Below are positions 27,223-63,722 of a DNA stretch of 64,000 bases, piece after piece. The stretch comes from an uncultured virus (IMG/VR IMGVR_UViG_3300031420_000005) (taxonomy: Duplodnaviria > Heunggongvirae > Uroviricota > Caudoviricetes). The notes beneath the pieces are model-generated. The model did not search any database, had not been told where the DNA came from, and saw only the letters and a program-made list of their open reading frames with translations. Within the stretch, counting starts at the first letter, position 1. Every line of letters starts with the position of its first letter. A program made the translations under genes and the position numbers. The DNA lies in the IMG/VR virus record IMGVR_UViG_3300031420_000005; one strand, 5' to 3'.

Positions 27223-27231
27223 AACAGCGTT

Positions 27232-32483: not shown

Positions 32484-33107
32484 GTGAGCTTCAACTTCCC
32501 CACCGTCGGCGAGCTCGTACAGAGCTATGTGGCCAACGGCCAGGGCGCGATTCCGCCTCGAGGCAAGGGTAGAAGAACCAGCACCATCGGCAGGGACTGG
32601 CTCGGAGCAGAGCTCAAGCCCGGCGACACCGTGCTCAGCTCTGCGGGCGCCCAGTCGAACTTCTTCCGGGTCAGCAATATCTTCCTCGACGACTCCGTTG
32701 GGCCGATCCGCGCGGACCTGGGAAACTACTTCTTCATTCCCGAAGGTAGCGACGAGCTCTATGCTTACAAGCCTGGCCACTGGGTAAAGGACGACAAGCA
32801 CTACCTACAGCAAGTCAACCCCGACTGGAGGCCCGGCTACCTCGGCCTCATCGACGGCGAGGGAGCCTTCAGGAGAGACTACCCGCAGCTTCAGCCAGTG
32901 AGCTTCCAGGGCATGGCGATCCAGGTCAAGCCCCTGGACGGAGTCGGAAAGGCTCGATCCCTGAAGCAGGAGCAGATCACGGTCATGGGCGCCCATGTGC
33001 TCGATCCCCAGTCGATCCTCGAGCTCCGGGCTGCTCAGACCATCGAGCTCACAGACAGGGTCCTCGTGCTCAAGCAAGCCTCCAACGGAAAGGCCTACAT
33101 CCTATGA
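32484..33107 (+). CDS. hypothetical protein, family S2
   Basis: FPT...RRTSTIGRDWLG...GD; VNPDWR..YLGLI; PVSFQG; TTGACA promoter at 32377. Confidence 0.75.
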   Translation: MSFNFPTVGELVQSYVANGQGAIPPRGKGRRTSTIGRDWLGAELKPGDTVLSSAGAQSNFFRVSNIFLDDSVGPIRADLGNYFFIPEGSDELYAYKPGHWVKDDKHYLQQVNPDWRPGYLGLIDGEGAFRRDYPQLQPVSFQGMAIQVKPLDGVGKARSLKQEQITVMGAHVLDPQSILELRAAQTIELTDRVLVLKQASNGKAYIL

Positions 33108-33778
33108 ACACTCGTGGCATCTTTGGGCAGCCGACGATCTCCTGGCGAGATCTCCCCAATCCTCTGAACATCCCCACCATCCGGGAACAGCTTCAGCACA
33201 TCGCGCCTCCGCTCTCTGGTAAGCGCCCCGGCGGAGGCGGCAAGAACCGGCTCACCGTTCCCGTGGGTCGAGACGGACTCGGCGTGGGCTTCGAGGTCGG
33301 AGACACCGTGCTCCTCGGTCAGCGCTACCGGCCGATCATCGCTGAGGTCGAGGGGATCTACGCTGAGGACTCTTCGGGCAACCGCTACTACGAGCCCCAG
33401 GATCTTCTCTACAGTGACGCCAAGGGAAACGATCTCTTCACCTACCGCTATGTCTACGGAGCTCCCAACAACCGGATCTTTAGCCGAGTCGATCCCGAGT
33501 GGAGGGGCGTTCGAGTCGGCCTCATCACCGAGGATCTTCAGCGCTACCTTCCGGCGCCTGGCTTCAGGCGCTCCGCCTCCTCCATCGCCCTCAAGGCCAT
33601 CGATGACGGATTCCTCCCCGTCGCCTTCCAGGGGATCAAGGTCAAGATCAAGCTCCTCCAGGACAGCCGCAGTAAGTTCGTGGGCCAGGATCAGCTCACC
33701 GTACTCGGAGATCATCTCACCGACGGGAGCCTCCTCCAGGCCTACCAGGAAGCTCTGCAGCCGCCCCTGGCCCCATAG
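33104..33778 (+). CDS. hypothetical protein, family S2
   Basis: VGRDGLG..FEVGD; VDPEWRG..VGLI; PVAFQG. Confidence 0.75.
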   Translation: MNTRGIFGQPTISWRDLPNPLNIPTIREQLQHIAPPLSGKRPGGGGKNRLTVPVGRDGLGVGFEVGDTVLLGQRYRPIIAEVEGIYAEDSSGNRYYEPQDLLYSDAKGNDLFTYRYVYGAPNNRIFSRVDPEWRGVRVGLITEDLQRYLPAPGFRRSASSIALKAIDDGFLPVAFQGIKVKIKLLQDSRSKFVGQDQLTVLGDHLTDGSLLQAYQEALQPPLAP

Positions 33779-33835
33779 ACCCTAGCTCCAGCAGCATTTT
33801 AGCAGCAACTTCAGCTTCGAGAAAGCGACAGCACC

Positions 33836-34492
33836 ATGAACAGCACAGGATCCGGCATTCAGCAGCCCTGGCAGGAGCTCCCGAAGCTCCTCCAGTTCCC
33901 CTCCCTGAGCGAACTCACGAGTCAGCCCATCTACCAGGCTCCTCAGCGAGGTTCGGGTGGTCAGCGAGCTAGGAGGAGGACATCCTCCATCGGCCGGGAT
34001 CGGCTCGGCCGGGCATTCCGCCAGGGCGATCAGCTCCAGGGCATCGTCGGAGGGAGCCTGGAGTTCGTGGAGGTGGACGAGATCTTCCTCGACGACACCG
34101 AGGGTCAGCCCTATGGCTCAGTTGGCTACTGGCACTGGCTCTTCCTCCTCCACCGGGCGAGCGGTGAGCTCTTCAAGGAGAGCCGCGGCCCCAACAACCA
34201 GTCGGTACTCGTGCCCCTGGACATGGACTGGCGGGGAACCCACCTGGGCCTCATCGAGGCAGTTAGCCTTCCCTCCTATGTAACCGTCCCCAACGGTTTC
34301 ACTCCCGTCAAGTTCCAGGATTTCAAGGTGCGCTGCGTTCCCCTGGAGTCGGGCAACGCTCGGAAGCTCACCCTGGACCCTGACAATCTCTCGGTGCTCG
34401 AAGCTCCCCTCCCCATCAGGGATCTGCAGCTCTACCGGGAGGCTCGCCAGCTGCCCCTGGATCAGGGTCGAGCCTTTCCCACTCCCAAGTGA
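33836..34492 (+). CDS. hypothetical protein, family S2
   Basis: RRTSSIGRDRLG; LDMDWRGTHLGLI; PVKFQ. Confidence 0.75.
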   Translation: MNSTGSGIQQPWQELPKLLQFPSLSELTSQPIYQAPQRGSGGQRARRRTSSIGRDRLGRAFRQGDQLQGIVGGSLEFVEVDEIFLDDTEGQPYGSVGYWHWLFLLHRASGELFKESRGPNNQSVLVPLDMDWRGTHLGLIEAVSLPSYVTVPNGFTPVKFQDFKVRCVPLESGNARKLTLDPDNLSVLEAPLPIRDLQLYREARQLPLDQGRAFPTPK

Positions 34493-34543
34493 GCTCGGTC
34501 GATCGTTAGTACCGTCCGAATTCCGCAAATCCAAGTAGGTTTC

Positions 34544-35632
34544 ATGCCCAGCAGCACCGAGCATCCCCTCCGCATCTGGTTCAACCGGCCCTTCGCCACG
34601 AGCTACTGGCTCTTCGACATGCTCCGGGACAATCCAGACGGCTACCCCGTCAAGATCTATGTGACTCAGACCGATCCCACCTCTCCGGTGTTCCAGGGAG
34701 CCGACTACGGAGAGCTCGAGCCCGACCTTCAGGGCGAGGCCTATGTGGACTGGGCCCTGGACTTCTGTGAGCGCCACGGCATCGAGCTCTTCTTCCCTCG
34801 CAAGTGGATCGAGATCCTCGTGGAGGCAGAGGAGCGCTTCGCAGCCCTCGGCGTGAGGCTCATCGCCTCTTCCCCGGAGGCTATTCGACTCTTCGAAGAC
34901 AAGAACCTGACCTACCGGGCAGCTACTGAGACTGGAGTCGCTGTGCCGCCCTGGTGCGTGGCCTCGGATGGGGAGAGCTTCGAGCGAGAGCTTCAGTCCC
35001 TGCGAGCAGAGCTCGAGGCTCAGGACCGCATCGTGGTGAAGCCCACCGTGGGCGTGGGCGCCCAGGGCTTCCGGATCCTCGACGAGAAGCCTCGCACCAT
35101 CAACGGGATCCTCGAGGGTGGGCTGCGAGTGAGCCCAGAGGAGCTCCTTCGTGGCTACGAGCGAGCGGAGGCCGCCGATGAGGCCCTCCCCGAGCTCATG
35201 CTCCTTCCCTACCTGGATGAACCTGAGCTCAGCGTGGACTGCCTCAGTAGCCCTCAGGGCGAGCTCCTGAAGACCATTCCCCGAGCCAAGCTCTCGGGTC
35301 GTCAGCGGCTCTTCACCGACGAGTACCCGGAGGCGGTGGAGCTCGTGGAGAGGCTCTACGCTGGCAGGGATCTGCGCTACATCACCAACACGCAGCTCCG
35401 CTGGTGGCGCGGTAGGCTCGTCCTCCTCGAGACCAACACTCGACCTGCCGGTGGGCTCTACGCTACTTCTCTCACGGGCGTCAACCTGATCTGGGATGCG
35501 GTCGCTCTAGCGCTCCGCGGAGAGGCCACGCCGAAGCAGCCTCGCCTCGGTGACTCCTATGTGGCGCTTGAGTCCTTCACGGAGCTCAAGGCCACTCCTC
35601 AGCCCGCCCAATACCCTGGAGCCATCCGATGA
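34544..35632 (+). CDS. ATP-grasp ligase (resembles the Ter-associated type)
   Basis: IWFNR N-terminus, EDK, VVKPTVGVGAQGF, ELSVD, LLETNTRPAGG. Confidence 0.8.
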   Translation: MPSSTEHPLRIWFNRPFATSYWLFDMLRDNPDGYPVKIYVTQTDPTSPVFQGADYGELEPDLQGEAYVDWALDFCERHGIELFFPRKWIEILVEAEERFAALGVRLIASSPEAIRLFEDKNLTYRAATETGVAVPPWCVASDGESFERELQSLRAELEAQDRIVVKPTVGVGAQGFRILDEKPRTINGILEGGLRVSPEELLRGYERAEAADEALPELMLLPYLDEPELSVDCLSSPQGELLKTIPRAKLSGRQRLFTDEYPEAVELVERLYAGRDLRYITNTQLRWWRGRLVLLETNTRPAGGLYATSLTGVNLIWDAVALALRGEATPKQPRLGDSYVALESFTELKATPQPAQYPGAIR

Positions 35633-36303
35633 GCAAGCTGTCATCAGCCCACCCTCGGCCCTGGGAGCTCCTCCCCAATCCCTACGGCTTCCCCTCCCTG
35701 GCGGATCAGGTACAGCAGGTTACGCCGATCCGGGGCTCTAGGCTCGCCGGGGCGCCGAAGCTCCCTCGCCGGAGCTCTCCTGTGGGCCGGGACAGCCTCG
35801 GCATCGGCTTCTCGGTCGGCGACCTCGTGCTTACTTCCCTGGGCGGGGTAGGCCGAGTGGCTGAAGTCCTCGAGGTCCCCCTGGATGGCTCCAACGGGAA
35901 GCCCCACCTCTCGGGCACTCCCCTCCTCCTCGACCGACGCTCTCAGCAGCTCTTCCAGTTTCAGCAGAAGGTGACTCGAGTCAACAGCTCTCGCTTCGAC
36001 ACTCAGCTCTACCTCTATCCCGTTGACATGGGCTGGCAGGGCATTCACCTGGGGCTCATGGAGTTCGATCTGAACAGCTACTTCCACAGCGCTAAGCTGC
36101 CTTCCTCCTTCACGGGAGTGCGGCTCCAGAGCTTCAAGGTCAAGGCTCGGATCCTCGAGCCTGGCGGGAAGACCGCAACCTTCCCTCAGTACCAGATCAC
36201 GGCCTATGGCGGCCTGCCTCAGGACGCCGCTCTGCTCCAGGCCTACTACGATGCGCTGGAGCTTCCGGTGCTTCGAGATCAGACCATCGTCATCGATCTC
36301 TAG
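35629..36303 (+). CDS. hypothetical protein, family S2
   Basis: RRSSPVGRDSLG..FSVGD; VDMGWQGIHLGL. Confidence 0.75.
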   Translation: MSKLSSAHPRPWELLPNPYGFPSLADQVQQVTPIRGSRLAGAPKLPRRSSPVGRDSLGIGFSVGDLVLTSLGGVGRVAEVLEVPLDGSNGKPHLSGTPLLLDRRSQQLFQFQQKVTRVNSSRFDTQLYLYPVDMGWQGIHLGLMEFDLNSYFHSAKLPSSFTGVRLQSFKVKARILEPGGKTATFPQYQITAYGGLPQDAALLQAYYDALELPVLRDQTIVIDL

Positions 36304-36390
36304 GCATAGTAGCCCCAGAGCAATCCGATCCACTCCGACCAGTTTCACCACCAGCGACAGATCACAGAATTCCATCTCGAAGGAGACACC

Positions 36391-37158
36391 ATGGCCAAGA
36401 GGAAGTTCACCAGCCGAGAGCTCAATGAGCATCTCGAGAACATCGACATCTACTGGCACAAGCACGGAGGCGAGGAGCGCGAGGAACTCCAGGAGTTCCT
36501 CACCGCGATCTTCGAGGCGCTTCCGGCGGATCGAACCCTGGGGGATGTGGCTCCCACCACGGGCACCATCGAGATCAAGCTCGACGGGCTCACAGCGGCG
36601 CTCAACGGCGCCCTGGAGGGCCTCTACGATGAGGATGAGGTCTCCGGGGAGGTTGACAGCATCGCCGACCGCTGCATCGAGCTCGGCGGAGAGCGCTGGT
36701 TCGAGAACCTGATCACAGATGAGAACTCCTTCAGCAGGGCCTTCGAGGAGCACTTCAGCGAAGACATCCTCAGCGACGAGGCCTACGCTCGAGTCGACGC
36801 CGTCCGAAAGGCCGCACTGGCAGGCGCAGCTCCCGTGGACTTCAACCGACCGCAGTCCGGCGGGGATGCTGCTGAGACCCTGGAGATCAACCTGCAGACG
36901 CTCCTCTCGGGGCTCTTCAGCGTCTACGAGGAGGATGAGGAAGAGGAGAAGATCCGGGCAACCGTGGATGAGTTCCTCGCCGAGCTCCAGGGCCGAGGCG
37001 GCCATGTGAACGGGGTCCGGCTCACCGCCAGCCGGGATCTCTTCCAGTACCTCTTCCCGCGCTACTTCAGCTCCTCCGATGAGTCCATCAACGGTCAGCT
37101 CCAGGTGCTCTCGGAGTCGCTCTTCGGGGACCGCTCCGCCGCCAACAACGGCTGGTAG
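36391..37158 (+). CDS. acidic hypothetical protein
   Basis: SD AAGGAG, 255 aa. Confidence 0.75.
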   Translation: MAKRKFTSRELNEHLENIDIYWHKHGGEEREELQEFLTAIFEALPADRTLGDVAPTTGTIEIKLDGLTAALNGALEGLYDEDEVSGEVDSIADRCIELGGERWFENLITDENSFSRAFEEHFSEDILSDEAYARVDAVRKAALAGAAPVDFNRPQSGGDAAETLEINLQTLLSGLFSVYEEDEEEEKIRATVDEFLAELQGRGGHVNGVRLTASRDLFQYLFPRYFSSSDESINGQLQVLSESLFGDRSAANNGW

Positions 37159-37167
37159 GACGGAGCC

Positions 37168-37710
37168 TTGACGATGACTGATCACAGCCTGCAGGATCAG
37201 GGCTCCGCTCTCCTCGAGGATCTGGCTCTCTACGCGATCCAGTCGAGCCAGGATCGACGGACCTTCGGCCGGGAAGAGCTCGACGGCGTACTTGAATCGG
37301 TGGAGCGCAGCTGGAACTTCACTCGCTCGGGGGAGCTCTCTGAGCTCCAGCGCGTGCTGAGCTACATCCGGGAGCTCCACGACTCGCTTCCCCTGGAGCT
37401 CCGTCCTGAGCCGCCGGACACGCTCACCATAGGCGTCAACGAGCTCGGTCTGTTCTTCAGCGCAGCACTCCGGGGCGTTCGAGACGCCGACGAGGCCCGC
37501 ACCCTGGCGGGAAGGCTCCTGGAGATCAGCCTGGACCACGGCGGCCACCTGCGCACCGACGGGGTGCTCAAGATCGAGCGCCGGAGCCTCCTCGTGGCCT
37601 TCGATCTCCTTCTGAGCCACGACTGTAGCGAGGAAGAGACACTGAGATCGGCGCTGCTTCCTCTCCGGGAGCGCTTCTCGGGAGTTCCTCGCGCAGCCGC
37701 TGGGGACTGA
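37168..37710 (+). CDS. hypothetical protein
   Basis: 180 aa, operonic. Confidence 0.65.
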   Translation: MTMTDHSLQDQGSALLEDLALYAIQSSQDRRTFGREELDGVLESVERSWNFTRSGELSELQRVLSYIRELHDSLPLELRPEPPDTLTIGVNELGLFFSAALRGVRDADEARTLAGRLLEISLDHGGHLRTDGVLKIERRSLLVAFDLLLSHDCSEEETLRSALLPLRERFSGVPRAAAGD

Positions 37711-37854
37711 TGGCGCTGATCCACCGCGGAGCGACAGTAGCTGCCCGCCTGAGCAGCCGGAAGGCAATCCTGCGGTCATCGTGTGGGCAGCTCTTCAGCG
37801 GGGCTCAGGCGGACACTGAGCGAAGTTCGGAGCTGCGCTTTGATAGAGTGGTTC

Positions 37855-37999
37855 CACGCCAGCTTCCCGTGGCTCACCTGAGACTCCCGTCCCCGCGCGA
37901 TTGGAGACCCTCTAGGAAGGTGCTTAGCATCCGGGATCTTTCAGCTAGAGCGTGTCTCACTCTCTTTCGACCGGCGCGGGTAGTCTAAGGAGATTCCTC
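37855..37999 (+). ncRNA. Structured kissing-loop leader RNA, copy D (divergent)
   Basis: After TGaTAGAGT; loop CCCGCGC 37892-98 in a CTCC/GGAG stem complementary to GCGCGGG 37974-80 in a TCTCTTT/AAGGAGA stem that covers the SD. Confidence 0.6.
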
Positions 38000-38704
38000 A
38001 TGGTATCAGACCATGCACTCAAGCTCGCTATCCGGGAGCGCCTCGAGCGCTACAATCGCAACGCTGTTCGAGCTGATCTACCTCCCATGAGCTACACGCA
38101 GATGCGAGCTCGCGTCCTTTCCGGTATGCACCTCTCCCTGGAAGAGATGACTCCTCTTCGCCAAGAGCAAGTCGCAGCAGGAGCGGCGGCCCTGGAATCC
38201 GGCCGTGATCTCATCATCTGTGGATCGACGGGGTCCGGCAAGACGACAATTGCACAGGCTGTGAACAACCGCACAAAGGGTGGACTCTACATCGCAGGCT
38301 CCTACCTGGAGTATGGCAAAGAGCTCCAGGGTTCAAACCACCTAGAGTGGGGAGAAGAGCTCAGTGGCTCAACCTATCTAGAATGGGATAGCGAGGAACC
38401 TAAGGTGAGAAGAGTTCGAGAGGCCAGTGCTCTCTGCATAGATGAAGTCATGGGTCACAAGGAGCTGGGGATCTCTCTACTGGCAGCTGATAAGCCGCTA
38501 GCGGTTGTGGTTCACGCCATGAAGCCCAGCGATGCAAGGCTCCGGCTAGAATACATCGGACTCGAGAGGGACTGGAATGATCCGGTGATCCTCTTCTGCC
38601 GCTATGAGGATCGACTCAATGACGAGCAGAGACAGGAACTCTGGGATCGAGAGGATCGAGAACTCCTCGAAAAAAGGAGCATTCCCGCGATAGTCAATGG
38701 GTAG
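38000..38704 (+). CDS. N-terminal basic-tag P-loop ATPase (PilT/VirB11-like fragment)
   Basis: Start MVSDHALKLAIRER; Walker A GSTGSGKTT, Walker B LCIDEV, VVH. Confidence 0.7.
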   Translation: MVSDHALKLAIRERLERYNRNAVRADLPPMSYTQMRARVLSGMHLSLEEMTPLRQEQVAAGAAALESGRDLIICGSTGSGKTTIAQAVNNRTKGGLYIAGSYLEYGKELQGSNHLEWGEELSGSTYLEWDSEEPKVRRVREASALCIDEVMGHKELGISLLAADKPLAVVVHAMKPSDARLRLEYIGLERDWNDPVILFCRYEDRLNDEQRQELWDREDRELLEKRSIPAIVNG

Positions 38705-38746
38705 CCGAAGCATGGAGCTTCGGGCGTAGCTATCAAGGAGTGCACC

Positions 38747-39118
38747 ATGTTCGCCAGCGAAGAAGACATCAGAGAAGCGGCCCTGCAGCGGCCCTATCGG
38801 GAGCTCCCAGCCGAGAAGTTAGCCAACCTACTGGAGGCCTTCGAGGAGTTCCTTCCCGCACTGGCGAACTACAGCCACTCCAGTGAGAACCTCATCGCCG
38901 AGTTCCCCGAGGAGCATCGCACGGACAGCCTTCGATCAGCCCTGGAGACAGATGAGCCCGAGGTGAGCTTCACGATCTACGAGATCCTCCTCGAGGCCTC
39001 GATCCGGATCCGCAACACGGGCACATCGCTCTGGCCGAGCTACCAGGACTGGAGTGAGCGAGGACTGTTCTTCGGCTTCGATGGAGAGGATCTCGACCAC
39101 GGCCTTTCGGTGGGCTAG
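38747..39118 (+). CDS. hypothetical protein
   Basis: SD AAGGAG. Confidence 0.7.
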   Translation: MFASEEDIREAALQRPYRELPAEKLANLLEAFEEFLPALANYSHSSENLIAEFPEEHRTDSLRSALETDEPEVSFTIYEILLEASIRIRNTGTSLWPSYQDWSERGLFFGFDGEDLDHGLSVG

Positions 39119-39213
39119 CACTCACCCCGAAACTCAGGCCGACAGCAAGGGCCCGGAAGGGAGCATCATCGCTTCGAACCGGGCCCTCTTTGCTGTGCGA
39201 GCGCCGGCTGCGC

Positions 39214-39795
39214 CTAGACGAGCTCGCCGAGCTGAAGAATCTCTCCCGGAGCATCGTAGGCGTCAAGGACTCGATCCCGAAGCACCAGTGCGTAGCTCGT
39301 CTCCTCAGCATCGATGCCGAGCTCTCTCAGGCTGAACTCACCGTTCCGATAGGCTTCGGTGAGCTCTCGAGCCTCTTCGCTGAGGGGCGACTGGTAGTAG
39401 TGGGTGGCCTCGGCCAGGGCCTGCGGGCTCACGAGGAGCGCCGCGGAGTCGAGCTCGATGCGGCCTCCGATGAGCCCGTGGCGCTGAAGGAAGTCCAGAT
39501 CCTGCTCTCCGAGCTCCTCATCGGTGCGCAGTGCGACACCGTGGTGGAATCCGTGGGAGTAGCCCTGGAGCTGTGCGCTGTCCAGGAGCTCGCTGTAGCG
39601 ATTGTAGCTGGGAAGGTCGATGATCTCTCCGTTGGGAAGAGCGATGCGACCCTCTTCCTCGAGCTCCGGCTCGAACTGAGATGGCCAGAGGCCGTTCTCG
39701 ACGGCGTTGTCTGCGGTGTAGATCAGGTTGTAGGTTCCTGGCTCCAGGTTCACAGCGAAGCCAGCTTGGATGAGTCGTTCTCGTAGATTGGTCAT
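39214..39795 (-). CDS. hypothetical protein (probably leaderless)
   Basis: TAGCAT-agctcc-ATG on minus strand, codon bias. Confidence 0.7.
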   Translation of the reverse strand: MTNLRERLIQAGFAVNLEPGTYNLIYTADNAVENGLWPSQFEPELEEEGRIALPNGEIIDLPSYNRYSELLDSAQLQGYSHGFHHGVALRTDEELGEQDLDFLQRHGLIGGRIELDSAALLVSPQALAEATHYYQSPLSEEARELTEAYRNGEFSLRELGIDAEETSYALVLRDRVLDAYDAPGEILQLGELV

Positions 39796-39970
39796 GGAGC
39801 TATGCTACCGAGGGTGGTCCCGAATCAGCGGTTCGATCGGCAGAAAGTTCGAAGGCTTCGACGCTCTAGCCTGTCGACCGTTGCAAGGAGAGCGAAGTTC
39901 ATGTACAGTGGTGCTGACAGTTCTCAACAGCAGATCGGCGTCCATTAGCGCCGGGGCGAAGGATTCCACC

Positions 39971-40630
39971 GTGAGCGGAGCACTCGTGCTAACCCACGGC
40001 CTTCCTGGAGCCGGAAAGTCCTCCCTGGCGGACTTCCTCCAGGCGCGCTACGGCACCATCGTGAGCATCGCCGAACGGGACGAGATTCGCCTCGAGCTAT
40101 TCGGCACCGAGTACTTCATCCTCGACCAGTACCTTCCGGTCAACGAGGATCGAGTCACCGAGATCCAGCACGCCCGCATCCGGGAAGAGCTCGCTCGAGG
40201 GCAGCTCGTCGTGGCGTCCGATACCAACCTCAATCCGCGCCGCATCCGGGAGCTCGTCTCCATCGCCCGAGAGTTCGACGCTCCAGTCTTCGATCTCCAC
40301 CTGGACATCTCTCAGGCGGAAGCCAAGGCCCGCAACGAGCATCGGGCTGAGGGCGGTGGAAGGCTGGTGCCTCAGGATGTGATCGATGACATGGCTGTCT
40401 ACGGCTACTCGGGTGAGCGCATTCGTCACTTCTCGGTGCGCTTCGACACCACGCTTCCCGAGGGCTTCGAGGTGCTCATCCGGGATCGCCGGGAAGATGA
40501 CCTGGAGCTCCTCCAGGAGATCGCCGTCCTCGACCGCTTCCTCGAGTCCTACGACCGGCCGACTCCAGGGCTGTCTTCAGGGCCGAACGCCTCCACCACG
40601 ACCTCTCCCGAAAGTATCAGGATCCAGTGA
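39971..40630 (+). CDS. P-loop kinase, polynucleotide-kinase-like (AAA_33 type)
   Basis: GLPGAGKS, RDEIR, DTNLN, RNEHR...VPQDVI. Confidence 0.8.
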   Translation: MSGALVLTHGLPGAGKSSLADFLQARYGTIVSIAERDEIRLELFGTEYFILDQYLPVNEDRVTEIQHARIREELARGQLVVASDTNLNPRRIRELVSIAREFDAPVFDLHLDISQAEAKARNEHRAEGGGRLVPQDVIDDMAVYGYSGERIRHFSVRFDTTLPEGFEVLIRDRREDDLELLQEIAVLDRFLESYDRPTPGLSSGPNASTTTSPESIRIQ

Positions 40631-41112: not shown

Positions 41113-41624
41113 ACTACATCCCCGTTCGGAGCTTTGACTTCGAGAATCCAGTTGTCACAGTAGCCGGAGTCGTTCTCCTGTTCGCCCTGGGCCTGCTGGT
41201 GCTCTTTCTCTGGCTGTTCGCTCGAGCTGATGGCAGGAAGCGAGAGCGAACCACGGTGATCTTCTCCCGCCTGGCTACTGGATCTGGAGCTGTCGCTGCC
41301 CTAGCATTAGTCGTGGCTTCGGCCGTCATGGGCTACGATTTCCTGGGTTTCAACAGGTTCAGCGAGCGCAGCCATGCCGTGCAGGCGCAGATCGAGAAGG
41401 ACTACGATCTCAAGCTCAGCCGCATGGAGTTCCACGACCTGAGCTACCCGGATTTCAGGCCTCAGGAGGACTTCGCGGTCTACGGCTCGATCCAGAAGAA
41501 CCTACCCCTCGCTCAGGGTGCCTACAGGAGCGCGAAGCTCTCCCTGGTCTGGTCGGAGGGCAAGTTCTACCTCTCCGAGTCCACCAACGGCGAGGACTTC
41601 ACTCCCCTGAAGCCCAAGGGTTGA
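41109..41624 (+). CDS. 2-TM protein, family M2 (2 of 6)
   Basis: LSYP, LVWSEGK, STNGEDFTPL. Confidence 0.8.
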   Translation: MNYIPVRSFDFENPVVTVAGVVLLFALGLLVLFLWLFARADGRKRERTTVIFSRLATGSGAVAALALVVASAVMGYDFLGFNRFSERSHAVQAQIEKDYDLKLSRMEFHDLSYPDFRPQEDFAVYGSIQKNLPLAQGAYRSAKLSLVWSEGKFYLSESTNGEDFTPLKPKG

Positions 41625-41674
41625 CAGCGACTCACTGAAACATTTATACAGCATTCTAGAATTGGACATATGAA

Positions 41675-42169
41675 ATGAACTACATCGAACGAGTCGGCGT
41701 CAATGTTCCCCTGGGCCTAGGCTTCTTCGGCCTGGCGGCCGTCGCACTGATCGCCCTAGTGGTGGTCTTTCTGGTCGAGAACAGGCGAACCAAGGGTGAC
41801 TGGTCTGGCAAGAGCTTCGCTGTGTTCTGTGTGCTCCTCGGCGTCACTGCGTGCAGCGTTGTGACCGGGTCCATCCTCACTGCCTCGACCACCAACATTG
41901 CCCGTGACAGTCAGAAGGAAGCCCTCAAGGAGCAGGTGAAGGAAACCTATGGACTTACGCTGCGAGATGATCAGCTCGCGAAGCTCAAGTACCCCGGAGA
42001 TCGGCCCCAGGGCGGCACTCAGTCCTTCGGTGCCTTCGAGCAGACCTCGATGGTGGGCGACGGCAAGTTCCTCAAGCGCGAGATCACCCTGGTTTGGGTG
42101 GACGGTAAGATGGTGCTCGCCGAATCCACCAACGGCGAGGACTTCACTCCTCTGGAGTCTAGGAGCTAA
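41675..42169 (+). CDS. 2-TM protein, family M2 (3 of 6)
   Basis: LKYP, LVWVDGK, STNGEDFTPL. Confidence 0.8.
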   Translation: MNYIERVGVNVPLGLGFFGLAAVALIALVVVFLVENRRTKGDWSGKSFAVFCVLLGVTACSVVTGSILTASTTNIARDSQKEALKEQVKETYGLTLRDDQLAKLKYPGDRPQGGTQSFGAFEQTSMVGDGKFLKREITLVWVDGKMVLAESTNGEDFTPLESRS

Positions 42170-42171
42170 GC

Positions 42172-42657
42172 ATGAACTTCATTCACCTGGAAACAGCCCC
42201 AGAGCCGACGAGCTTCGTCATCTTCTGGATCATCGCAGCCCTGATTGGCCTGGCAGCTATCGGCCTCATCGTCTACGCACTCTGGAGGGACGCTACTCTA
42301 CTCATCATGCTCGTCCCGGCCTTCTTCGTGGGATTGGGTCTCTTGATCGTAGTCGATTCTCTTCAGGACAGCGCCAACGATGATCTTCGTCGGGATCAGC
42401 TCAAGGCTGTCCATGCTCAGATCGAGGATCACTATGGAATCGATCTGGAGAAGGGCGAGCTCGCAGCGCTGCACTACCCCAAGTCGAAGCCCAGGGGCAA
42501 CTTCAAGGGCTACGGCTCCTTCGAGCAGACTGTTGCAGCTGAATCCGGCGAGGGCTTCGTCCAGCGGAAGATTGTCCTCGCCTGGCAGAACGGGAAGATG
42601 GTGCTCGGCCAGTCCACCAACGGCGAGAACTTCGCTCCCCTGAAGGCCAAGAGCTAA
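42172..42657 (+). CDS. 2-TM protein, family M2 (4 of 6)
   Basis: LHYP, LAWQNGK, STNGENFAPL. Confidence 0.8.
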   Translation: MNFIHLETAPEPTSFVIFWIIAALIGLAAIGLIVYALWRDATLLIMLVPAFFVGLGLLIVVDSLQDSANDDLRRDQLKAVHAQIEDHYGIDLEKGELAALHYPKSKPRGNFKGYGSFEQTVAAESGEGFVQRKIVLAWQNGKMVLGQSTNGENFAPLKAKS

Positions 42658-42659
42658 CC

Positions 42660-42860
42660 ATGATTGCACCTCTCTACTGGTCGCTAGTCGCCATTCTGCT
42701 CCTGGTATCAATCGTGCTGATCTCAATGCTCGCCGACAATGCCTTCAATCAGCGTCGAACTCCGTGGATACCCTACCCTCTCAGGGTGCTGTTCACGGTG
42801 ACCTTCTACCTGATGATCGCTACTGTCTTCATCTTGCTTTTGGCCGTTGATCCGACCTAA
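42660..42860 (+). CDS. small membrane protein
   Basis: Two hydrophobic segments. Confidence 0.6.
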   Translation: MIAPLYWSLVAILLLVSIVLISMLADNAFNQRRTPWIPYPLRVLFTVTFYLMIATVFILLLAVDPT

Positions 42861-42891
42861 CAAAACTAGAACACGAAATGAGAAATCTGAA

Positions 42892-43455
42892 ATGAAGTTC
42901 ATCGAACTGACCTACGGAGACAGCACGCTCTCCACCGTGCTCTTCGTGATTGCAGGAATCGCTTTCCTCACATTGATGGTGATGATCTTCCTCGCAGGCT
43001 CTAAGATCATTGACTTCTCACCCCTGACCAACACGCTCTTCGTAGTTCTCATGGTCGTTGCCATCTCATCGGCCACTTGGGCTACCCTGAGCATGCCATC
43101 GGGCTACGAGGCGCGTAGGGAGCAGCTCAATGAAGTCAAGGGCGAGATCCAGGACCGCTATGGAATCGGCCTGTCGAAGGATGAGGTCAGGGAGCTCGAC
43201 TACCCGATGGCTGAGCCCGAGAAGGACTTCGAGGTCTTCGGCACGGTGACCCGGAATGTGGCGCTCAAGGATGGCTTTGAGCGCCAGGAGATCTCGCTGC
43301 TCTGGCGGGATGGACGCTTCGAGCTCGCTCAGTCCAACGACGGCCAGGGCTTCACCGCTCTGAAGCCCCGGGGCGATGAAGAGCACGGTTCGGTGAGCGA
43401 TGAGCCCTTCTTCGCTCCAGGCTCCGCTGCCGCCGAGAAGACCAGCGACGACTGA
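42892..43455 (+). CDS. 2-TM protein, family M2 (5 of 6)
   Basis: Start MKFI; LDYP, LLWRDGR, SNDGQGFTAL. Confidence 0.8.
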   Translation: MKFIELTYGDSTLSTVLFVIAGIAFLTLMVMIFLAGSKIIDFSPLTNTLFVVLMVVAISSATWATLSMPSGYEARREQLNEVKGEIQDRYGIGLSKDEVRELDYPMAEPEKDFEVFGTVTRNVALKDGFERQEISLLWRDGRFELAQSNDGQGFTALKPRGDEEHGSVSDEPFFAPGSAAAEKTSDD

Positions 43456-52554: not shown

Positions 52555-53397
52555 ATGACTACTTCAGCCTACGGCGCCCATCTCTCGGGCGGCAAGGATC
52601 TTCGACCATCGGCCGTCACCGCAGCCCGCATGGGCTTCGAGGCCTTCCAGGTCTTCCTCCACGGTCCCACGAGCAGTAGGATGCCCACGGGCACAGAAGA
52701 GTTCGACGGGCTCTTCAGGGATGCGGTGGAGCTCCTCAATGCCCGGGTCTTCGTCCACGGACCCTATCTCATGAACTTCGGCTCTGCCCGGGAAGAGGTG
52801 CGCTCGAGCTCGGTGGAGATGCTTCGCCGCAACCTCGACCGGGCCGCCACCATCGGCGCCGAGGGCGTGGTGTTCCACGGAGGATCGAGCACGGGTGCCT
52901 CCCGGCTCGAGGGCCTACGGAGGCTCCACAACAGCCTCATGCCCCTCCTCGACTCCCTTCCCGAAGATGGCCCTCAGGTCATCCTGGAGCCCACGGCCGG
53001 CCAGGGCGACAGCCTGGCCTCATCTGTGGACAGCATCAGCGACTATCTCCTCTCGACGCTCAACGGCCATCCCAAGCTCTCCCTGTGCCTTGACACCTGC
53101 CACCTTCTGGCTGCCGGAGAGCCCCTGGACGAGGAAGACGGCGTGGATCAGCTCCTGGAGAAGTTGAAGTCCCACGGGCTCTGGGATAGGGTGCTCCTGT
53201 TCCATGCCAACGACTCAGCCTTCGAGCGCGGATCCCACCGGGATCGCCACGCCAACCTGGGCTACGGCCACGCCCACCCCGAGACCTGGAATCGGCTCAT
53301 GGACACCGGTGTTCCACTGATCCTAGAGACTCCGGGAGAGCACTTCCAGTCTGACATCAGCATCCTGCAGGGGCTGCACGAGAGCAAGGAGAACTAA
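52555..53397 (+). CDS. nfo: endonuclease IV (AP endonuclease family 2)
   Basis: GAH, VHGPYLMN, VFHGGS, LEPTAG, LDTCH, HANDS, DRHANLG, LETP. Confidence 0.92.
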   Translation: MTTSAYGAHLSGGKDLRPSAVTAARMGFEAFQVFLHGPTSSRMPTGTEEFDGLFRDAVELLNARVFVHGPYLMNFGSAREEVRSSSVEMLRRNLDRAATIGAEGVVFHGGSSTGASRLEGLRRLHNSLMPLLDSLPEDGPQVILEPTAGQGDSLASSVDSISDYLLSTLNGHPKLSLCLDTCHLLAAGEPLDEEDGVDQLLEKLKSHGLWDRVLLFHANDSAFERGSHRDRHANLGYGHAHPETWNRLMDTGVPLILETPGEHFQSDISILQGLHESKEN

Positions 53398-53399
53398 CC

Positions 53400-53558
53400 A
53401 TGGAGAATCCAGCAAGCTGGGGACCAGCAGAGCGCACCATCAAGCGAGCCATGGACCGCTACGAGGAAGATCGAGCCAAGGGCGTCATCGGTCTCTCCCC
53501 CTACGCGGTGATCGCCAACGAGCTCCGGGCAGCCGGGCTCCTCGTGGCCCACGACTGA
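53400..53558 (+). CDS. small hypothetical protein
   Basis: Hand translation of 52 aa, SD AAGGAG. Confidence 0.6.
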   Translation: MENPASWGPAERTIKRAMDRYEEDRAKGVIGLSPYAVIANELRAAGLLVAHD

Positions 53559-53728
53559 TGGGCCTGAGACAGCGGCTCACACGCTCCACCGAGCGCCTCG
53601 AGGACCGCATCGAGCGGCTCCGAGCCAAGGGTGGAAGCCGCCGGGAGCTCAAGGCGGCGAAGCTCGACCTCAAGGCTGAGCTCAACCGCACCGTCCTTCG
53701 GGACTGGGACGACGAGCGCTGGGGCTGA
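53558..53728 (+). CDS. small basic helical protein
   Basis: TGATG coupling, 56 aa. Confidence 0.55.
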   Translation: MGLRQRLTRSTERLEDRIERLRAKGGSRRELKAAKLDLKAELNRTVLRDWDDERWG

Positions 53729-53730
53729 TC

Positions 53731-53865
53731 GTGGGAAAGAGCATCGAGGAGCTCCTCCAGAGTCGCCCAGTAAACCGAACCAAGATCGACGCTGAGAAGG
53801 CTCGGCTACTCGCACTCGTCGAAGAGCACCAGCAAGCACAGACAGAATCTAAGGAGAACGACTGA
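53731..53865 (+). CDS. small hypothetical protein
   Basis: 44 aa, stop coupled to ATG 53865. Confidence 0.45.
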   Translation: MGKSIEELLQSRPVNRTKIDAEKARLLALVEEHQQAQTESKEND

Positions 53866-54089
53866 TGGGACGCATCGACCTCAAGCAACTTCGAGCTGCC
53901 GTCGGGCGCGGGTTCAAGAAGTACGGTGAGAGTGAGCAGCTCAAGCTCATCCGCATCAACATCAAGCACTTCGAGAAGCTCGCCACTCGAGCCTACCGGA
54001 GTAGAGACATCGTGGGCTTCAACGCCCTGAGGGCCAAGGCCGAGCTCTGGAGGCAGGCCGAGGCCAAGCACCTGGCGGGGGCCGCCTGA
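53865..54089 (+). CDS. small basic protein
   Basis: SD AAGGAG. Confidence 0.65.
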   Translation: MGRIDLKQLRAAVGRGFKKYGESEQLKLIRINIKHFEKLATRAYRSRDIVGFNALRAKAELWRQAEAKHLAGAA

Positions 54090-54307
54090 TGGGGATCTGG
54101 GACCGGCTCGGCTCCGCTCAGAATCGGCTGTTCAACAGGCGGGCCAATCGAGCAGCCAACAGGCGTGCAACGCTCATCGCCAAGGCTGAGCTCTACGAGA
54201 AGATGGCCGAGCTCAGCGCCCTGGATGGCACCGCCCAGGGTGAGGGCACCAGTGAATGGGCCCGGGCCGAGGCGAAGAGGCTCCGCATCGAGGCAGAGCT
54301 CATCTAG
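54089..54307 (+). CDS. small basic helical protein
   Basis: TGATG coupling. Confidence 0.6.
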   Translation: MGIWDRLGSAQNRLFNRRANRAANRRATLIAKAELYEKMAELSALDGTAQGEGTSEWARAEAKRLRIEAELI

Positions 54308-54361
54308 GCTAACCGTTCGATAGGGTAACCACAGAACTCCAGCCCAGCGGAAAGGATCAGC

Positions 54362-54736
54362 ATGCTCGGCTTCAGCCTCACGATCAGTGAGCTCAAGGCA
54401 CAGCCCACTCGAAGGCTCCATCGCATCATCGAGGACGCAGCTGACCACAGGGAGATTCCTGGGATCATCCGCTACGAGCTCCAGGGTCAGCAGGTCAGCT
54501 ACATCGAGAAGATCACGCCCTGGTGGTGCGCTGGCAAGCTCATAGAGCTCGTGGAGGACCACCGGATCAACGGAGCCATCATGCTCTACCGGGGAGGATA
54601 CCCCTTCCTCTTCACAGTGCGAGGTCGAGACATCATCGACTCCATTGTCAATGTGGAGGGTAGCCGCCACACTGACCTGGTCCATGTGCTCCAGCCCGAG
54701 ACCATGTACCTTCTCGAAGCCTGGGATCAGAGCTGA
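54362..54736 (+). CDS. hypothetical protein
   Basis: SD AAGGA. Confidence 0.7.
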   Translation: MLGFSLTISELKAQPTRRLHRIIEDAADHREIPGIIRYELQGQQVSYIEKITPWWCAGKLIELVEDHRINGAIMLYRGGYPFLFTVRGRDIIDSIVNVEGSRHTDLVHVLQPETMYLLEAWDQS

Positions 54737-54794
54737 TCGCAGCCTTCCACCATTCATAGCCAACCAGCCTCCGAGGCTGAGAACGGAGCCTCCC

Positions 54795-55781
54795 ATGGCC
54801 TTCTCCATCGACCCAGCACTGCGCTTCTCCCCCGTGGTGGCCTTCGATGTGGACGGTGTGCTCCGAGTGCGAAAGATTCCGGAGCGCCGAGGATCCGCAA
54901 TCATCGAGCAGGGTGGGCTCATCGATCTGGAGATCACCCTGGAGCAGGAGGAGTATCCCTCCATCTACCACGGGCAGCCCAAGTGGGACGAGCGCGGCAA
55001 GAGCACCCGCATCGAGAGCTTCTCTCAGGCGGCAGTGGAGCTCATCCGCAGCCTGGCTGAAGATCCTCGCGCTGAGCCCGTCTACGCCACCACCTGGCAG
55101 CGCTGGGCCAACTACTACTTCAACTCGGCCCTGGATCTTCCGGAGCTCCCCGTGGCCGTCGAGACCCTGGATCCGCCGGAGCTCAACTACGCCCACTGCT
55201 CTCCCGCCTGGAAGACCGCCCAGCTCGCTCGACAGTTCGACGGTAGGCCTCTGCTCTGGATCGATGACAACATGCCGGACCGGGACAGCGAGGATCTCGC
55301 GAGCCTGAGAAGGCCCATCGACCGGGGAATCACCCGGAGCTTCCAGGTCAGCCCCTGGACTGGGATAACCCCAGAGGACATCGGGAAGATCATGGACTGG
55401 GTGGAGCTTGCGAGCACCCCAGAGGGCCAGAAGAAGCTCCGAGCACAGCGCCAGGCTCAGGTCAGCTACGAGCGCCAGCAGCTGGCCAAGTTCCTACGAC
55501 AGCGAGATCGAGAGCGTCAGGCCTTTGAGACCGTTCGGGATCGCACCCTGGAGCTCTACCCGGAGTACGGCAAGCGCTTCGCCACGGCCATCGGGAGTAT
55601 CGGCCAGAGCAAGCGTGGGCTCTCGGTGACCAATGTGACTCGGCTCCTTCAGCGCCATCCCTATGTGCCGATGGATCCAGCTGAGCTCGCCGCCAGCCTG
55701 CGGATTCCTCGCTACCACCTCCGGGATCTCAACGAGGCGGAAGATCGGGATGCTGGCTTCGACGAGCGCTACGACTTCTAG
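54795..55781 (+). CDS. HAD-family phosphatase (resembles the RNA-repair HAD_SAK type)
   Basis: AFDVDGVL, ATTW, WK, LLWIDD. Confidence 0.75.
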   Translation: MAFSIDPALRFSPVVAFDVDGVLRVRKIPERRGSAIIEQGGLIDLEITLEQEEYPSIYHGQPKWDERGKSTRIESFSQAAVELIRSLAEDPRAEPVYATTWQRWANYYFNSALDLPELPVAVETLDPPELNYAHCSPAWKTAQLARQFDGRPLLWIDDNMPDRDSEDLASLRRPIDRGITRSFQVSPWTGITPEDIGKIMDWVELASTPEGQKKLRAQRQAQVSYERQQLAKFLRQRDRERQAFETVRDRTLELYPEYGKRFATAIGSIGQSKRGLSVTNVTRLLQRHPYVPMDPAELAASLRIPRYHLRDLNEAEDRDAGFDERYDF

Positions 55782-55964
55782 GCCCCTAGGAGCCTTCCTG
55801 AGCGACTTCTAGGGTTCCCGTGCGTCATCGCTCGCCGGAGATCACAGTGCGCCTTAGATGGGCAGCTACTGTCGACTGACTTCAGCTGACGATAGGTGGT
55901 GCCGACGGTCTTCCTGGATCGTCTCTGAACTGGCGAGAACCAGACCACTGAAAGGACGGCCACC

Positions 55965-56993
55965 ATGGCCAAGAAGCCAAAGCGCGGAAGCTACCTCAAT
56001 CTCGAGGATGTGCGGGTCTTCTACGACGCGAAGTCGGACACAGTATCGCTCACTTCCGGCGGCAGGGATCTACCCGAAGCCGGTGGGCTGAAGATCGATC
56101 TCAGCCCCGGCACTCAGCCAGAGCGTCAGCTCCGAGAGCTCCTCAAGGTCAAGGGTGTGATTCGTGAGGATCTCTGGCCTCGAGTGACGCGAGGAGACAC
56201 CTTCGAGAGCATCGTGAGCTCACAGGAAGATCAGCTCCATCTCGGCACCAACATCAACGGTGAGTCCGTGGAGTGGAACCTCAACTCTTACCGAAACCTC
56301 TGGGTCCACGGGGCAACCGGTGGCGGCGCTTCTCTTCTCTCTCGAGCGGCTATTCAGCACGGATTCGTCCATGGCTGGGAGATCTTCGGCATCGATCCCC
56401 GTCGAGTAGAGCTCGAAGAGATCAGCAAGTACCCCGTGGGCAGAACAGTAGCCAAAGACACCCAGGAAGCACTGAACCTCCTCGACAGCATCAGCAGGCT
56501 TGCCGAGGAGCGCATCAGCTTCCTGGAGGGTCAGAATGTGTTGAGCACTCGAGACCTTCCCGGAGACCTGCAGCCACGCAAAGTGCTCCTCATCATCGAC
56601 TCAGTCGAGCTCCTCCTTGAGTCTGCCAGCCCCGATGATCAGGCAAAGCTTCTCGCGAGCCTCGAAAGGCTTAGCTGGCTAGGTAGGCCAGTGGGAGTTC
56701 ATGTGCTCCTGAGCTCCAAGTCTCAGCCTCGAGACCTCCAGCGCACTGACGCTGACGAGCTCAAGAAGATTCAGGCCTCCTGTGCCCACATCGTCTGCGG
56801 TAACTACTACCAGGATCGGCTTCCCGAAGGCCTGCGAGAGCGCTACAGGCCCAATCGAGGTCGAGGCATGGGTAGAGCTCAGTTCATTCTCGGTGGTCCA
56901 TCGATGGCTACGCTAGAGTTCCAGCTCGGTCTGGCTCTCGATGCGCCCAGAGAATTCATCGAGGCGCTGCGAGCCCACCGACGAGGCTACTGA
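55965..56993 (+). CDS. FtsK/HerA-like P-loop protein with degenerate Walker motifs
   Basis: LHLG, GATGGGAS (no Lys), IDPRRVEL, LIIDS, LGRPVGVH, GRGMGRA. Confidence 0.7.
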   Translation: MAKKPKRGSYLNLEDVRVFYDAKSDTVSLTSGGRDLPEAGGLKIDLSPGTQPERQLRELLKVKGVIREDLWPRVTRGDTFESIVSSQEDQLHLGTNINGESVEWNLNSYRNLWVHGATGGGASLLSRAAIQHGFVHGWEIFGIDPRRVELEEISKYPVGRTVAKDTQEALNLLDSISRLAEERISFLEGQNVLSTRDLPGDLQPRKVLLIIDSVELLLESASPDDQAKLLASLERLSWLGRPVGVHVLLSSKSQPRDLQRTDADELKKIQASCAHIVCGNYYQDRLPEGLRERYRPNRGRGMGRAQFILGGPSMATLEFQLGLALDAPREFIEALRAHRRGY

Positions 56994-62042: not shown

Positions 62043-63530
62043 TCAGCCTCCAGCGTGGATACCCCTGAAGAGCTGCTCTCCGTTCCAGCGATGCTCGTCC
62101 CGGGACTTCCAGCAGAGCTCCATGTCCTCGTTGGGATGAGCGGGGTTGAGATCCCTCCAGAACCAGTCGTCCCGGGCAGTGAAGCTGTTGCGGAGATCCT
62201 CGGGGAAGCTCTCAAAGCGCTCGGTGACTTCGGGTTCGACCTCCTCGATCCAGAGTGCGAGGGCCTTCAGGCCCAGGTCCCCGTCCGTGGTTCCCTCGAT
62301 GAGCCAATTCTCTCCATCCTCGCCGAGGTCCCAGACCACGACCTCATCCAGGGTCTCGCGCTCCGGGAGGGTCACACCATCGGTCCAGCCCTTGAGCACG
62401 GCTGCAAGCTTCGGCTCCGTGGGCTCAGGAGCTCCAGTGCTGCTCCACCAGATGCGCCTGAAGATGCGCTCCAGCCGGTAGGCTTCCTGGGCAGCCTCAG
62501 CCACGAGCTCGGGGGTGACCAGGTGATCGTAGGTCACGGTCTGCCAGTAGGTCGGGTAGAGCTCGAAGAGCTCGGAGAGCTGAAGCTGACCGGCCCTGAT
62601 GGAGTTGGCCCAAATTCGGAGGATGGGATTACCCCAAGTGGGGTGCTCGACGAAGCGCATCCGAGAGAAACTCACGCCGATCTCATCCCTCTGGCCACTG
62701 GGACCTCTCCGGTGCTTTGCGAGGTTCAGGGAGAGGATGTCCTCATCTGACCTCTCGGTGGAGCGCCGGTGGAGGAGAAGCACCTGGTCGGCGTCCTGCT
62801 CAAGGGCACCGGTCCACCGGATGTCGCTGAGCTTCGGCGGATACTCTTCGCCGATGAATCGATTGAGCTGAACAGTCACCAGAACGGCCACACCGAGCTC
62901 CAGGGCCAGGAGCTTGAGATCCCGGGAAACGGCGGCGAACTTCTCCTGTCTAGACGCACCTGTGGCTTCGAGGGATGGCATGATGAGCTCGAAGTAGTCC
63001 ACGACGATGAGATCGAGGCCTCTCTCGCTACCGATGAGCTCCAGGGCACGGGCTCGGATGTGCGCTACGGTCTGGCGAGGATCGTCGTCCAGGGTGAGCG
63101 CGAGCTGGCTCAACGCCCAGCGCGCATCTCGAATGAGCCGGCCTGTGTAGGGATTGGTCTCTCTGGCTTCTTGCTTGACCTCGGGAATCGTCAGGGAGGT
63201 CTTCGAGGCGATCATCCGCGCAAGGAGCTCATCCGCACTCATTTCAAGGCTGGAGAAGAGCACGGACTTGCCAGCCTGGAGGGCGCCGAGGGTGCTCTGG
63301 ATAGCGAAGGCTGACTTGCCGTCTCCGGGGCGAGCGGCGATCAGGGACAGGCCACTGGGCGTCCACCCTCCGGTCCACTCGTCGAGCATGGAGAACCCGG
63401 TGGGGACACCGATGGGCTTTCGAACGAAGGCGGATCCCTCTGAGACCTCTCGGAGTGCGCGAGTGTAGCTTCCAGCTCCGGCTTCCTTGCGGCGCCGGGC
63501 TTCCAGCTTCTGTCGTCTGTTCTTGGTCAT
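62043..63530 (-). CDS. dnaB: DnaB-like SF4 helicase domain with N-terminal basic tag and extra C-terminal domain
   Basis: GVPTGF..LD, ARPGDGKS, SLEM, VDY, QLNR, SDIR..GALEQDAD; normal DnaB N-terminal domain absent. Confidence 0.85.
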   Translation of the reverse strand: MTKNRRQKLEARRRKEAGAGSYTRALREVSEGSAFVRKPIGVPTGFSMLDEWTGGWTPSGLSLIAARPGDGKSAFAIQSTLGALQAGKSVLFSSLEMSADELLARMIASKTSLTIPEVKQEARETNPYTGRLIRDARWALSQLALTLDDDPRQTVAHIRARALELIGSERGLDLIVVDYFELIMPSLEATGASRQEKFAAVSRDLKLLALELGVAVLVTVQLNRFIGEEYPPKLSDIRWTGALEQDADQVLLLHRRSTERSDEDILSLNLAKHRRGPSGQRDEIGVSFSRMRFVEHPTWGNPILRIWANSIRAGQLQLSELFELYPTYWQTVTYDHLVTPELVAEAAQEAYRLERIFRRIWWSSTGAPEPTEPKLAAVLKGWTDGVTLPERETLDEVVVWDLGEDGENWLIEGTTDGDLGLKALALWIEEVEPEVTERFESFPEDLRNSFTARDDWFWRDLNPAHPNEDMELCWKSRDEHRWNGEQLFRGIHAGG

Positions 63531-63676
63531 GGGACTACTCAACTCTCTACAGCTCTACCCACGCCTGGCTGCTTGAAGGAGCAGATACCAGAGACCCATA
63601 GGATTCAGGGAACCTTGTTCTTGGGGGCTCACCGCGTGGGAGTGAAGCTGCGAAGACAGGCCGCTATGGGCAGCCA
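63531..63676 (-). ncRNA. Structured kissing-loop leader RNA, copy E
   Basis: After TGtTAGCAT (minus strand, 63691-83); GGCTGC/GCGGCC hairpin; loop CCCACGC (63640-34) in a TTCAC/GTGAG stem complementary to GCGTGGG (63564-58). Confidence 0.65.
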
Positions 63677-63722
63677 GGTCCCATGCTAACACACTGGCTG
63701 CAGTCTGTGCACTCCTCGAAGC

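Follow-up and report, generated by a model that had tools for sequence, protein, structure and literature searches.

The leader RNA that precedes the DnaB-like gene of the window (the whole stretch of 64,000 nucleotides that was analysed, IMG/VR record IMGVR_UViG_3300031420_000005) is linked to a short basic peptide at the N-terminus of the encoded protein, and not to the DnaB-like gene as such, upstream of which the initial annotation had placed it. The RNA accompanies this tag near-obligately whatever the passenger, and the passengers fall into 25 unrelated clusters. A folded RNA of this kind upstream of tagged genes is apparently both widespread and uncatalogued. As read from sequence comparison, the pair is rather likely to be a portable cassette for translational autorepression, with the tag binding the leader of its own message.

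The leader of copy E (63531-63691, minus strand) contains every element that had been named in it, each at its place, and both its hairpins and its CCCACGC/GCGTGGG loop-loop pair are real. All of the following coordinates are on the minus strand. P1 (GGCTGC/GCGGCC, 63659-63675) closes the loop CCATA and covaries in the family; P2 (63653-63658 with 63616-63622, the whole arm spanning 63616-63658) encloses P3 (TTCAC/GTGAG, 63642-63646 with 63628-63632), both helices covary in relatives, and P3 is capped by the 7-nt kissing loop CCCACGC (63634-63640). The P4 hairpin occupies 63602-63614, with a conserved purine linker (RACAAGG) just 5' of it. Overlooked at first, as were P2, P4 and the lower stem, was a second pseudoknot, PK1, in which CCCATAG in the P1 loop (63664-63670) meets CTATGGG (63595-63601) in seven Watson-Crick pairs, a duplex of -9.1 kcal/mol. 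The 3' hairpin domain (63535-63584) carries an upper stem together with a lower stem that joins an anti-RBS (ribosome-binding site) strand, CTGCTC (63579-63584), to the RBS-like GAGTAG (63535-63540); the kissing partner GCGTGGG (63558-63564) sits in the distal hairpin CAGC/GCTG, 27 nt before the ATG at 63530 and so inside the 15-45 nt that defines the family. In the lowest-energy fold the first bases of the leader (63682-63531) can pair with those just before the ATG. The three substitutions listed for related strains within the leader all fall in unpaired positions, strain variants at 63607 and 63609 lie in the P4 loop, and a deletion at 63645, among the variants listed, removes a bulged base of P3. 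The folding energy of the copy E leader is unremarkable against shuffles (z = -1.62), and the case therefore rests on topology and comparison.

The one element whose role had to be revised is TGTTAGCAT, which is indeed present at 63691-63683 on the minus strand but is probably a promoter. The reading of this word as an RNA component was dropped, as TGnTAnnnT recurs at the same place and distance in 35 of 35 A/B/C-type leaders. Given its resemblance to the extended -10 promoter consensus, and judging from its conserved position, it is most likely an extended -10 element (TGnTAnnnT, 63683-63691), from which the RNA would start some 6-7 nt downstream. Among genome leaders, a TAnnnT word lies 164-210 nt upstream in 32 of 36.

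The other copies in the window lie on the plus strand, each with a putative promoter, a leader and an ORF. Copy A (24218-25578; leader 24227-24411) has a tagged ORF of 388 aa from 24412 with a weak CHC2 zinc finger at its end, copy B (25628-27222) one of 461 aa from 25837, and copy C (28580-30186) one of 471 aa from 28771 with a CHC2 zinc finger; copy D (37841-38704), whose kissing pair is CCCGCGC/GCGCGGG, has an ORF from 38000 in which a divergent tag with an insertion precedes a P-loop domain. That copies A to E keep one topology, as had been proposed, was borne out by a descriptor that passes all five. It comprises P1, the P2/P3 arm ending in a loop of 7 nt, P4, the PK1 strand and the distal hairpin. 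PK1 joins the strand right after P4 to the P1 loop, and the P3 loop has its partner in the loop of the distal hairpin. In its complete form, with P1, PK1, 7-nt kissing loop, P4 and distal hairpin, the topology arose once in 1000 dinucleotide shuffles of E and in none of 1000 of D. The loose descriptor passes 12 of 468 TAnnnT sites in the window, among them the five of copies A to E; in unrelated viral loci it passes 18 of 2088.

Covariation establishes the core pairings and the kissing pair. In a core alignment of 26 sequences 95.1% of cells are paired against 80.0% after shuffling, and 18 of the 27 core pairs, including all six PK1 pairs, change on both sides, values that none of 500 shuffles attains; slid partners give 38-53% paired. 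Likewise, 4 of the 7 pairs of the kissing helix change on both sides (31 sequences, with three misaligned rows kept). These controls consist of shuffles and slid partners and leave kinship uncorrected. In the A/B/C type, all 33 leaders share one and the same kissing helix, and changes in PK1 are confined to one of its sides; RNAalifold on such leaders recovers PK1, P3, P4 and the distal stem unaided.

The initial annotation had concluded that it is the pairing, rather than recent common ancestry, that is conserved between E and copies A-C. The pairing is indeed conserved, as judged by covariation, but E is a distant homologue by descent with loop sequences typical of the family. A covariance model built from 11 leaders outside the window, which were picked for resembling E, places E at the top of the window with 34 bits (E 2.1e-5), the next match scoring 14.9 bits. 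Similarly, the contention that both loop partners had changed in E relative to A-C holds insofar as copies A to E contain three distinct matched kissing pairs, but it is the CCTGCGC/GCGCAGG of A-C that is a local variant. The main-subfamily model, R1, finds D in the window (24.4 bits, E 0.007) and neither E nor A-C; copies A-C are thus missed by both covariance models, and they are assigned to the family by topology, loop consensus and peptide. Orthogonality between the individual copies A-C is doubtful, since the kissing loops are identical in 33 of 33 A/B/C-type leaders. Cassettes of this type occur in tandem arrays (24218-30186 in the window, and loci L002, L003, L005 and L006, with up to five in L005) in which the leader and the first 40 residues are nearly fixed and the bodies are variable, a pattern that suggests cassette recombination by which passengers are swapped.

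The second component, a basic peptide of about 33 residues predicted to form two helices and marked by K8, R12, Y22 and A25, is encoded at 63432-63530 (minus strand) and is proposed to be an RNA-binding tag. It opens the 495-aa ORF of copy E (62043-63530, minus strand), where it is followed by a DnaB C-terminal helicase core (aa 41-280) and an unmatched C-terminal region; no DnaB N-terminal domain was matched in this ORF. The ORFs of copies A to E all start with the basic peptide, that of copy A lacking R12, and their bodies (DnaB core, P-loop domain, zinc finger) are unrelated or distantly related. A pattern fitted to the five tags after the fact matched no other ORF in the window. Among 1.84 billion representative proteins the peptide profile found 74, many of them short or joined to other domains. 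In 77 genome hits R12 and Y22 are present in all, K8 in 74 and A25 in 76. Against Pfam the tag gave no match and against NCBIfam nothing better than E 0.019. In the AlphaFold model of a relative, P0088, the tag forms two helices (residues 2-33) with block pLDDT of 91-98 over residues 1-30, and a fold search with this model returned nothing at E <= 0.001.

What the tag is attached to varies widely. The 85 tagged proteins examined separate into 25 unrelated C-terminal passenger clusters, whose families include BtrH_N+DUF4872, DUF4287, BFN nuclease, CN hydrolase, DUF6292, YozE-like, FtsK and DnaB_C, and no shared pathway or metabolic theme was found among them. The DnaB core accounts for one cluster of the 25. 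In six DnaB orthologues of E (P0049-P0054) the first 30 residues are nearly fixed while the core drifts to as little as 47% identity, and, as judged by eye, a catalytic motif is lost in three of the six; P0051 and P0054 are matched by the peptide profile. Because the tags of these orthologues stay fixed while cores drift and motifs are lost, and because no DnaB N-terminal domain is matched in the ORF of E, the link is to the peptide and not to replication. A regulator specific to DnaB or to replication was accordingly rejected, and the DnaB core of copy E is probably not the replicative helicase. Among P0051, P0052 and P0054, two different C-terminal regions occur. Elsewhere, in P0086, P0090, P0114 and locus L192, a similar helix hairpin is repeated two or three times inside the protein, away from the N-terminus; L192 has no leader, and its repeats may represent a related domain in a different use.

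The breadth of the association became apparent from sampled genomes. The tag peptide was matched in 51 of 401 sampled Actinomycetota genomes (the phylum of an Amycolatopsis record), about one in eight, and in 17 of 401 genomes from the family of a Leifsonia record at E <= 0.01, a threshold that admits some spurious matches; no match came from 251 sampled genomes of the phylum of a Clostridiales record, a search run without a positive control. The fetched loci, drawn from the best-scoring hits and thereby favouring typical members, gave 83 distinct peptide hits, of which 77 were kept. Six were dropped, none of which has the leader RNA: three lack a start codon, two apparently lie inside a longer viral ORF and one is a VapB-like ORF. 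Of the 77 hits with a start codon, about 73 have the kissing pair: in 61 leaders a single pattern detects the loop-loop pair with 6 or 7 of its 7 positions in Watson-Crick pairs, a further 12 are of the CCCCAGC/CCTCAGC type, and the remaining four were unparsed. The pair of copy E, CCCACGC/GCGTGGG, is the commonest (21 of 77), followed by the matched variants CTCACGC/GCGTGAG (13), CCCGCGC/GCGCGGG (6) and CTCGCGC/GCGCGAG (3); CTCGCAC/GTGCGAG, CCCGCAC/GTGCGGG and CCCACAC/GTGTGGG also occur in genome leaders. All 35 A/B/C-type starts have a kissing pair. Seven genomes among the rows are marked unpublished (G003, G020, G050, G084, G122, G176 and G241; loci L130, L137, L149, L151, L160, L166, L167, L171 and L187), so that publication of these needs permission; they enter the 51/401 count, the covariation, the 77-leader parses, the RBS test, the passenger clustering, model R1 and the reverse test.

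In that reverse test, which starts from the RNA, the 25 hits of model R1 are spread over 18 of 151 genomes, and 24 of them lie just upstream of a peptide match; outside the training set of R1, 13 of 14 hits precede a peptide match. The sole hit without a peptide (L177:1200-1640) is a 5' remnant with no kissing partner and no tagged ORF behind it. Its upstream context is that of the intact cassettes L132 and L135, and it is apparently a deleted cassette. On plasmids, the hits inspected were those of Sinorhizobium meliloti pSmeSM11a, Phyllobacterium zundukense, Streptomyces sp. NBC_00989 and Curtobacterium pusillum pCPAA3, and the leader is present in all four by eye (one with a G-U pair) and in three by model R1. 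The pSmeSM11a hit (L226:1501) is an unannotated, tagged CN-hydrolase-like ORF that has no ATG at the expected start and is cut at 161 aa, with the G-U in its kissing pair; it is possibly decaying.

Other routes to relatives yielded little. A DNA pattern scan of viral contigs returned 101 stretches, of which 80 were fetched; no A/B/C-type leader among these passed the descriptor, and the matches were treated as chance. Scans of the viral and genome collections with A-type proteins found no relative, phage and plasmid searches likewise, and a viral scan with the DnaB protein of E gave no match. Degenerate peptide patterns produced only two viral and four genome matches; in the two viral ones, which showed no leader, the peptide apparently lies inside a longer ORF, and one genome match (L121) was set aside as chance. 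With the tag peptide, tblastn against phages gave only matches at E >= 6, and the Atlas searches gave no usable match. Rfam 15 had no match at gathering score in the window and 20 genome loci, and E-value scans of the window and eight loci placed nothing over any leader; a weak guanidine-II-like match at L181:896-948, below gathering score, lies outside the leader. Readings as a T-box, cobalamin, SAM-IV, raiA or HDV-like ribozyme RNA were set aside, there being no Rfam match. The full-text literature searched, which excludes subscription journals and the supplements of PMC11109978 and PMC5737381 (these may include the motif), yielded no paper on this RNA-tag element, and the available portions of PMC11109978 and PMC8632094 do not describe it.

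How the pair may work is suggested by the position of the 3' hairpin. Folding, with the kissing loop held open, places the RBS window (5-14 nt before the start codon) in pairs with a mean probability of 0.70 against 0.42 in shuffled controls, and 73 of 77 genome leaders exceed their control. Leaders of the A/B/C type show it only weakly (0.48 against 0.43, above control in 20 of 30), and the value falls below control in copy E in the family-wide run (0.49 against 0.61); pairing in copy E reaches about 0.99 only with the PK1 strand left out and the kissing loop held open. Across unrelated passengers, similarity of the RNA core correlates with that of the peptide (mean Spearman 0.48), which is also expected from physical linkage alone. 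In the proposed mechanism, transcription would start just behind the putative extended -10 promoter, and the leader folds into a 5' domain (P1, P2/P3 and P4, locked by PK1) and a 3' hairpin that, as folding predicts, base-pairs with the ribosome-binding region. The 7-bp kissing pair docks this hairpin onto the 5' domain, and the first 30 or so residues of the protein, as a basic helix hairpin, may bind the docked RNA and keep the RBS closed, such that the tagged protein would limit its own synthesis. Given that promoter, RNA and tag lie within about 300 contiguous bases, the cassette could be fused in frame to almost any passenger, which in copy E is the DnaB core. A bolder version, which we hold possible but would not yet back, is that bacteria and giant plasmids graft this shuffleable "expression clamp" of some 300 bases onto arbitrary domains, which would thereby gain negative feedback at once, and that orthogonal RNA-tag subtypes (D, E, A-C) co-evolve.

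Several other readings accommodate part of this evidence. The leader might be a riboswitch, or a switch bound by a host factor, that responds to a small molecule or to stress, with the peptide serving a separate job such as targeting, degradation or partner binding and being merely adjacent. A conserved pseudoknotted 5' domain joined to an RBS-hiding 3' domain has the appearance of such a switch, the unpaired purine linker before P4 is conserved, and the A/B/C leaders offer, by eye, a possible alternative pairing to the distal stem. Against this, 25 unrelated passenger clusters with no common pathway and no ligand theme argue against a metabolite sensor, the RNA occurs without the peptide in only one of 25 hits, a remnant, and the best-conserved features are pairings of freely varying sequence, as in PK1. 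A switch of this kind is unlikely. We consider it less likely again that the RNA is released or serves as a stable partner which, bound to the tag, holds the passenger back or localises it in the manner of a type III antitoxin, with translation left uncontrolled. The compact double-pseudoknot fold and the tight one-to-one linkage of RNA and tag would suit such a partner, as would passengers that are potentially harmful when unrestrained (BFN nuclease, helicase core, BtrH/DUF4872); yet there is one RNA copy per gene without a repeat array, the 3' domain overlaps the gene's own RBS, and many tagged proteins are short and contain no recognisable enzyme.

An activating role, in which kissing opens the RBS as in the IncI repZ pseudoknot and the tag or nascent chain tunes this coupled switch in cis, is improbable to a slightly greater degree. 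As in plasmid rep activators, the loop pairing spans a long range and lies 15-40 nt ahead of the start codon, and the A/B/C type hides its RBS only weakly, but in most members the kissing loop caps the RBS-hiding hairpin, so that docking should stabilise the closed state. Least credible, and to our minds barely so, is promoter repression by the tag, acting as an RHH-like DNA-binding domain without the ribbon, while the RNA forms an independent second layer. A weak profile match to VapB30 (E 1.2), in the helices of that DNA-binding antitoxin, and a match to an Rv0623-like family in one member (E 0.005) point in this direction; the VapB-like ORF caught by the profile (L221), however, has no leader RNA, the predicted domain consists of two helices only and contains no beta-ribbon, and the near-obligate link to the RNA is left unexplained. 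Autorepression by a tag that binds its own leader remains the reading preferred here.

The element that carries these copies is less easily placed. The window lies within a 178-kb metagenomic contig (L011), has relatives on a 674-kb contig and is present in phyllosphere runs of two further studies; no RNA datasets are listed among the runs that contain it. None of its 65 ORFs matched phage structural families. Similar cassettes, found three times on a Leifsonia contig of 701 kb and also on pCPAA3 (567 kb), are the basis for guessing that it is a giant plasmid-like element of Microbacteriaceae; a direct test for a plasmid relative found none. Other features of the window include four tandem paralogous small ORFs at 41523-43383 with a common 108-nt segment (family D2), a 42-nt repeat family (D12) near small-ORF starts at 4508, 5012, 5980 and 58201, and, at 30606-40630 and 52555-56993, a histidyl-tRNA-synthetase-like fragment with ATP-grasp, polynucleotide-kinase-like AAA, TIM-barrel, HAD (of RNA-repair type) and FtsK-like genes, whose neighbours are mostly unmatched ORFs.

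The pair matters in that neither part is catalogued, the RNA being absent from Rfam 15 and the peptide having no Pfam or NCBIfam family, and in that it has also reached plasmids of alphaproteobacteria. Should the tag bind the leader, a small RNA-binding domain would be added to those known, one whose target is already identified, and autoregulation would here evolve through fusion of domains and not through mimicry. Further, a 30-residue tag and a 150-nt operator with several natural variants may provide Streptomyces and other high-GC hosts with a simple feedback part; were the expression-clamp reading true, the family would amount to a natural parts library of small peptide-RNA switches.

Several known systems share features with this pair. 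In the cobalamin and guanidine-IV riboswitches a kissing loop likewise links a 5' domain to a regulatory hairpin, whereas here there is neither an Rfam match nor a ligand-related theme among the genes. Type III toxin-antitoxin and AbiF RNAs are similarly pseudoknotted and encoded directly upstream of a protein partner (here presumed), but the present RNA lacks repeats, overlaps the translation start region and precedes varying passengers; in place of a tandem pseudoknot array with a toxin RNase there is a single leader per gene and no such RNase among the families found. The ColE1 RNA I/RNA II complex and Rop also combine a fully complementary 7-nt loop-loop pair with a small helix-turn-helix protein; here the kiss is intramolecular, within an mRNA leader, and no sequence link to Rop exists. 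The translational pseudoknot of IncI, IncB and IncL/M plasmid rep genes, as in ColIb-P9 repZ, resembles copy E in that a distant loop pairs shortly before the RBS, the gene being of replication type and carried by a mobile element, but the present leaders have two pseudoknots, mostly precede genes without a role in replication and likely repress rather than activate. No leader peptide or antisense RNA was noticed with them. In the antiterminators BglG, SacY and LicT a small N-terminal RNA-binding domain (CAT) recognises a cognate leader structure (RAT), much as proposed for the tag; here there is no 3' terminator, the 3' domain hides the RBS, the tag has no Pfam family and the passengers are not PRD regulators. 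Comparable, too, are the autogenous translational operators of ribosomal proteins such as S15, S4 (alpha operon) and L20, in which a pseudoknotted 5' leader beside the RBS is bound by the gene's own product, as is proposed here. The Rfam families of those leaders have no match to this RNA; further, what a ribosomal protein binds in its leader mimics its site on the rRNA, whereas here a dedicated tag of about 30 residues stands in front of 25 unrelated passenger clusters.
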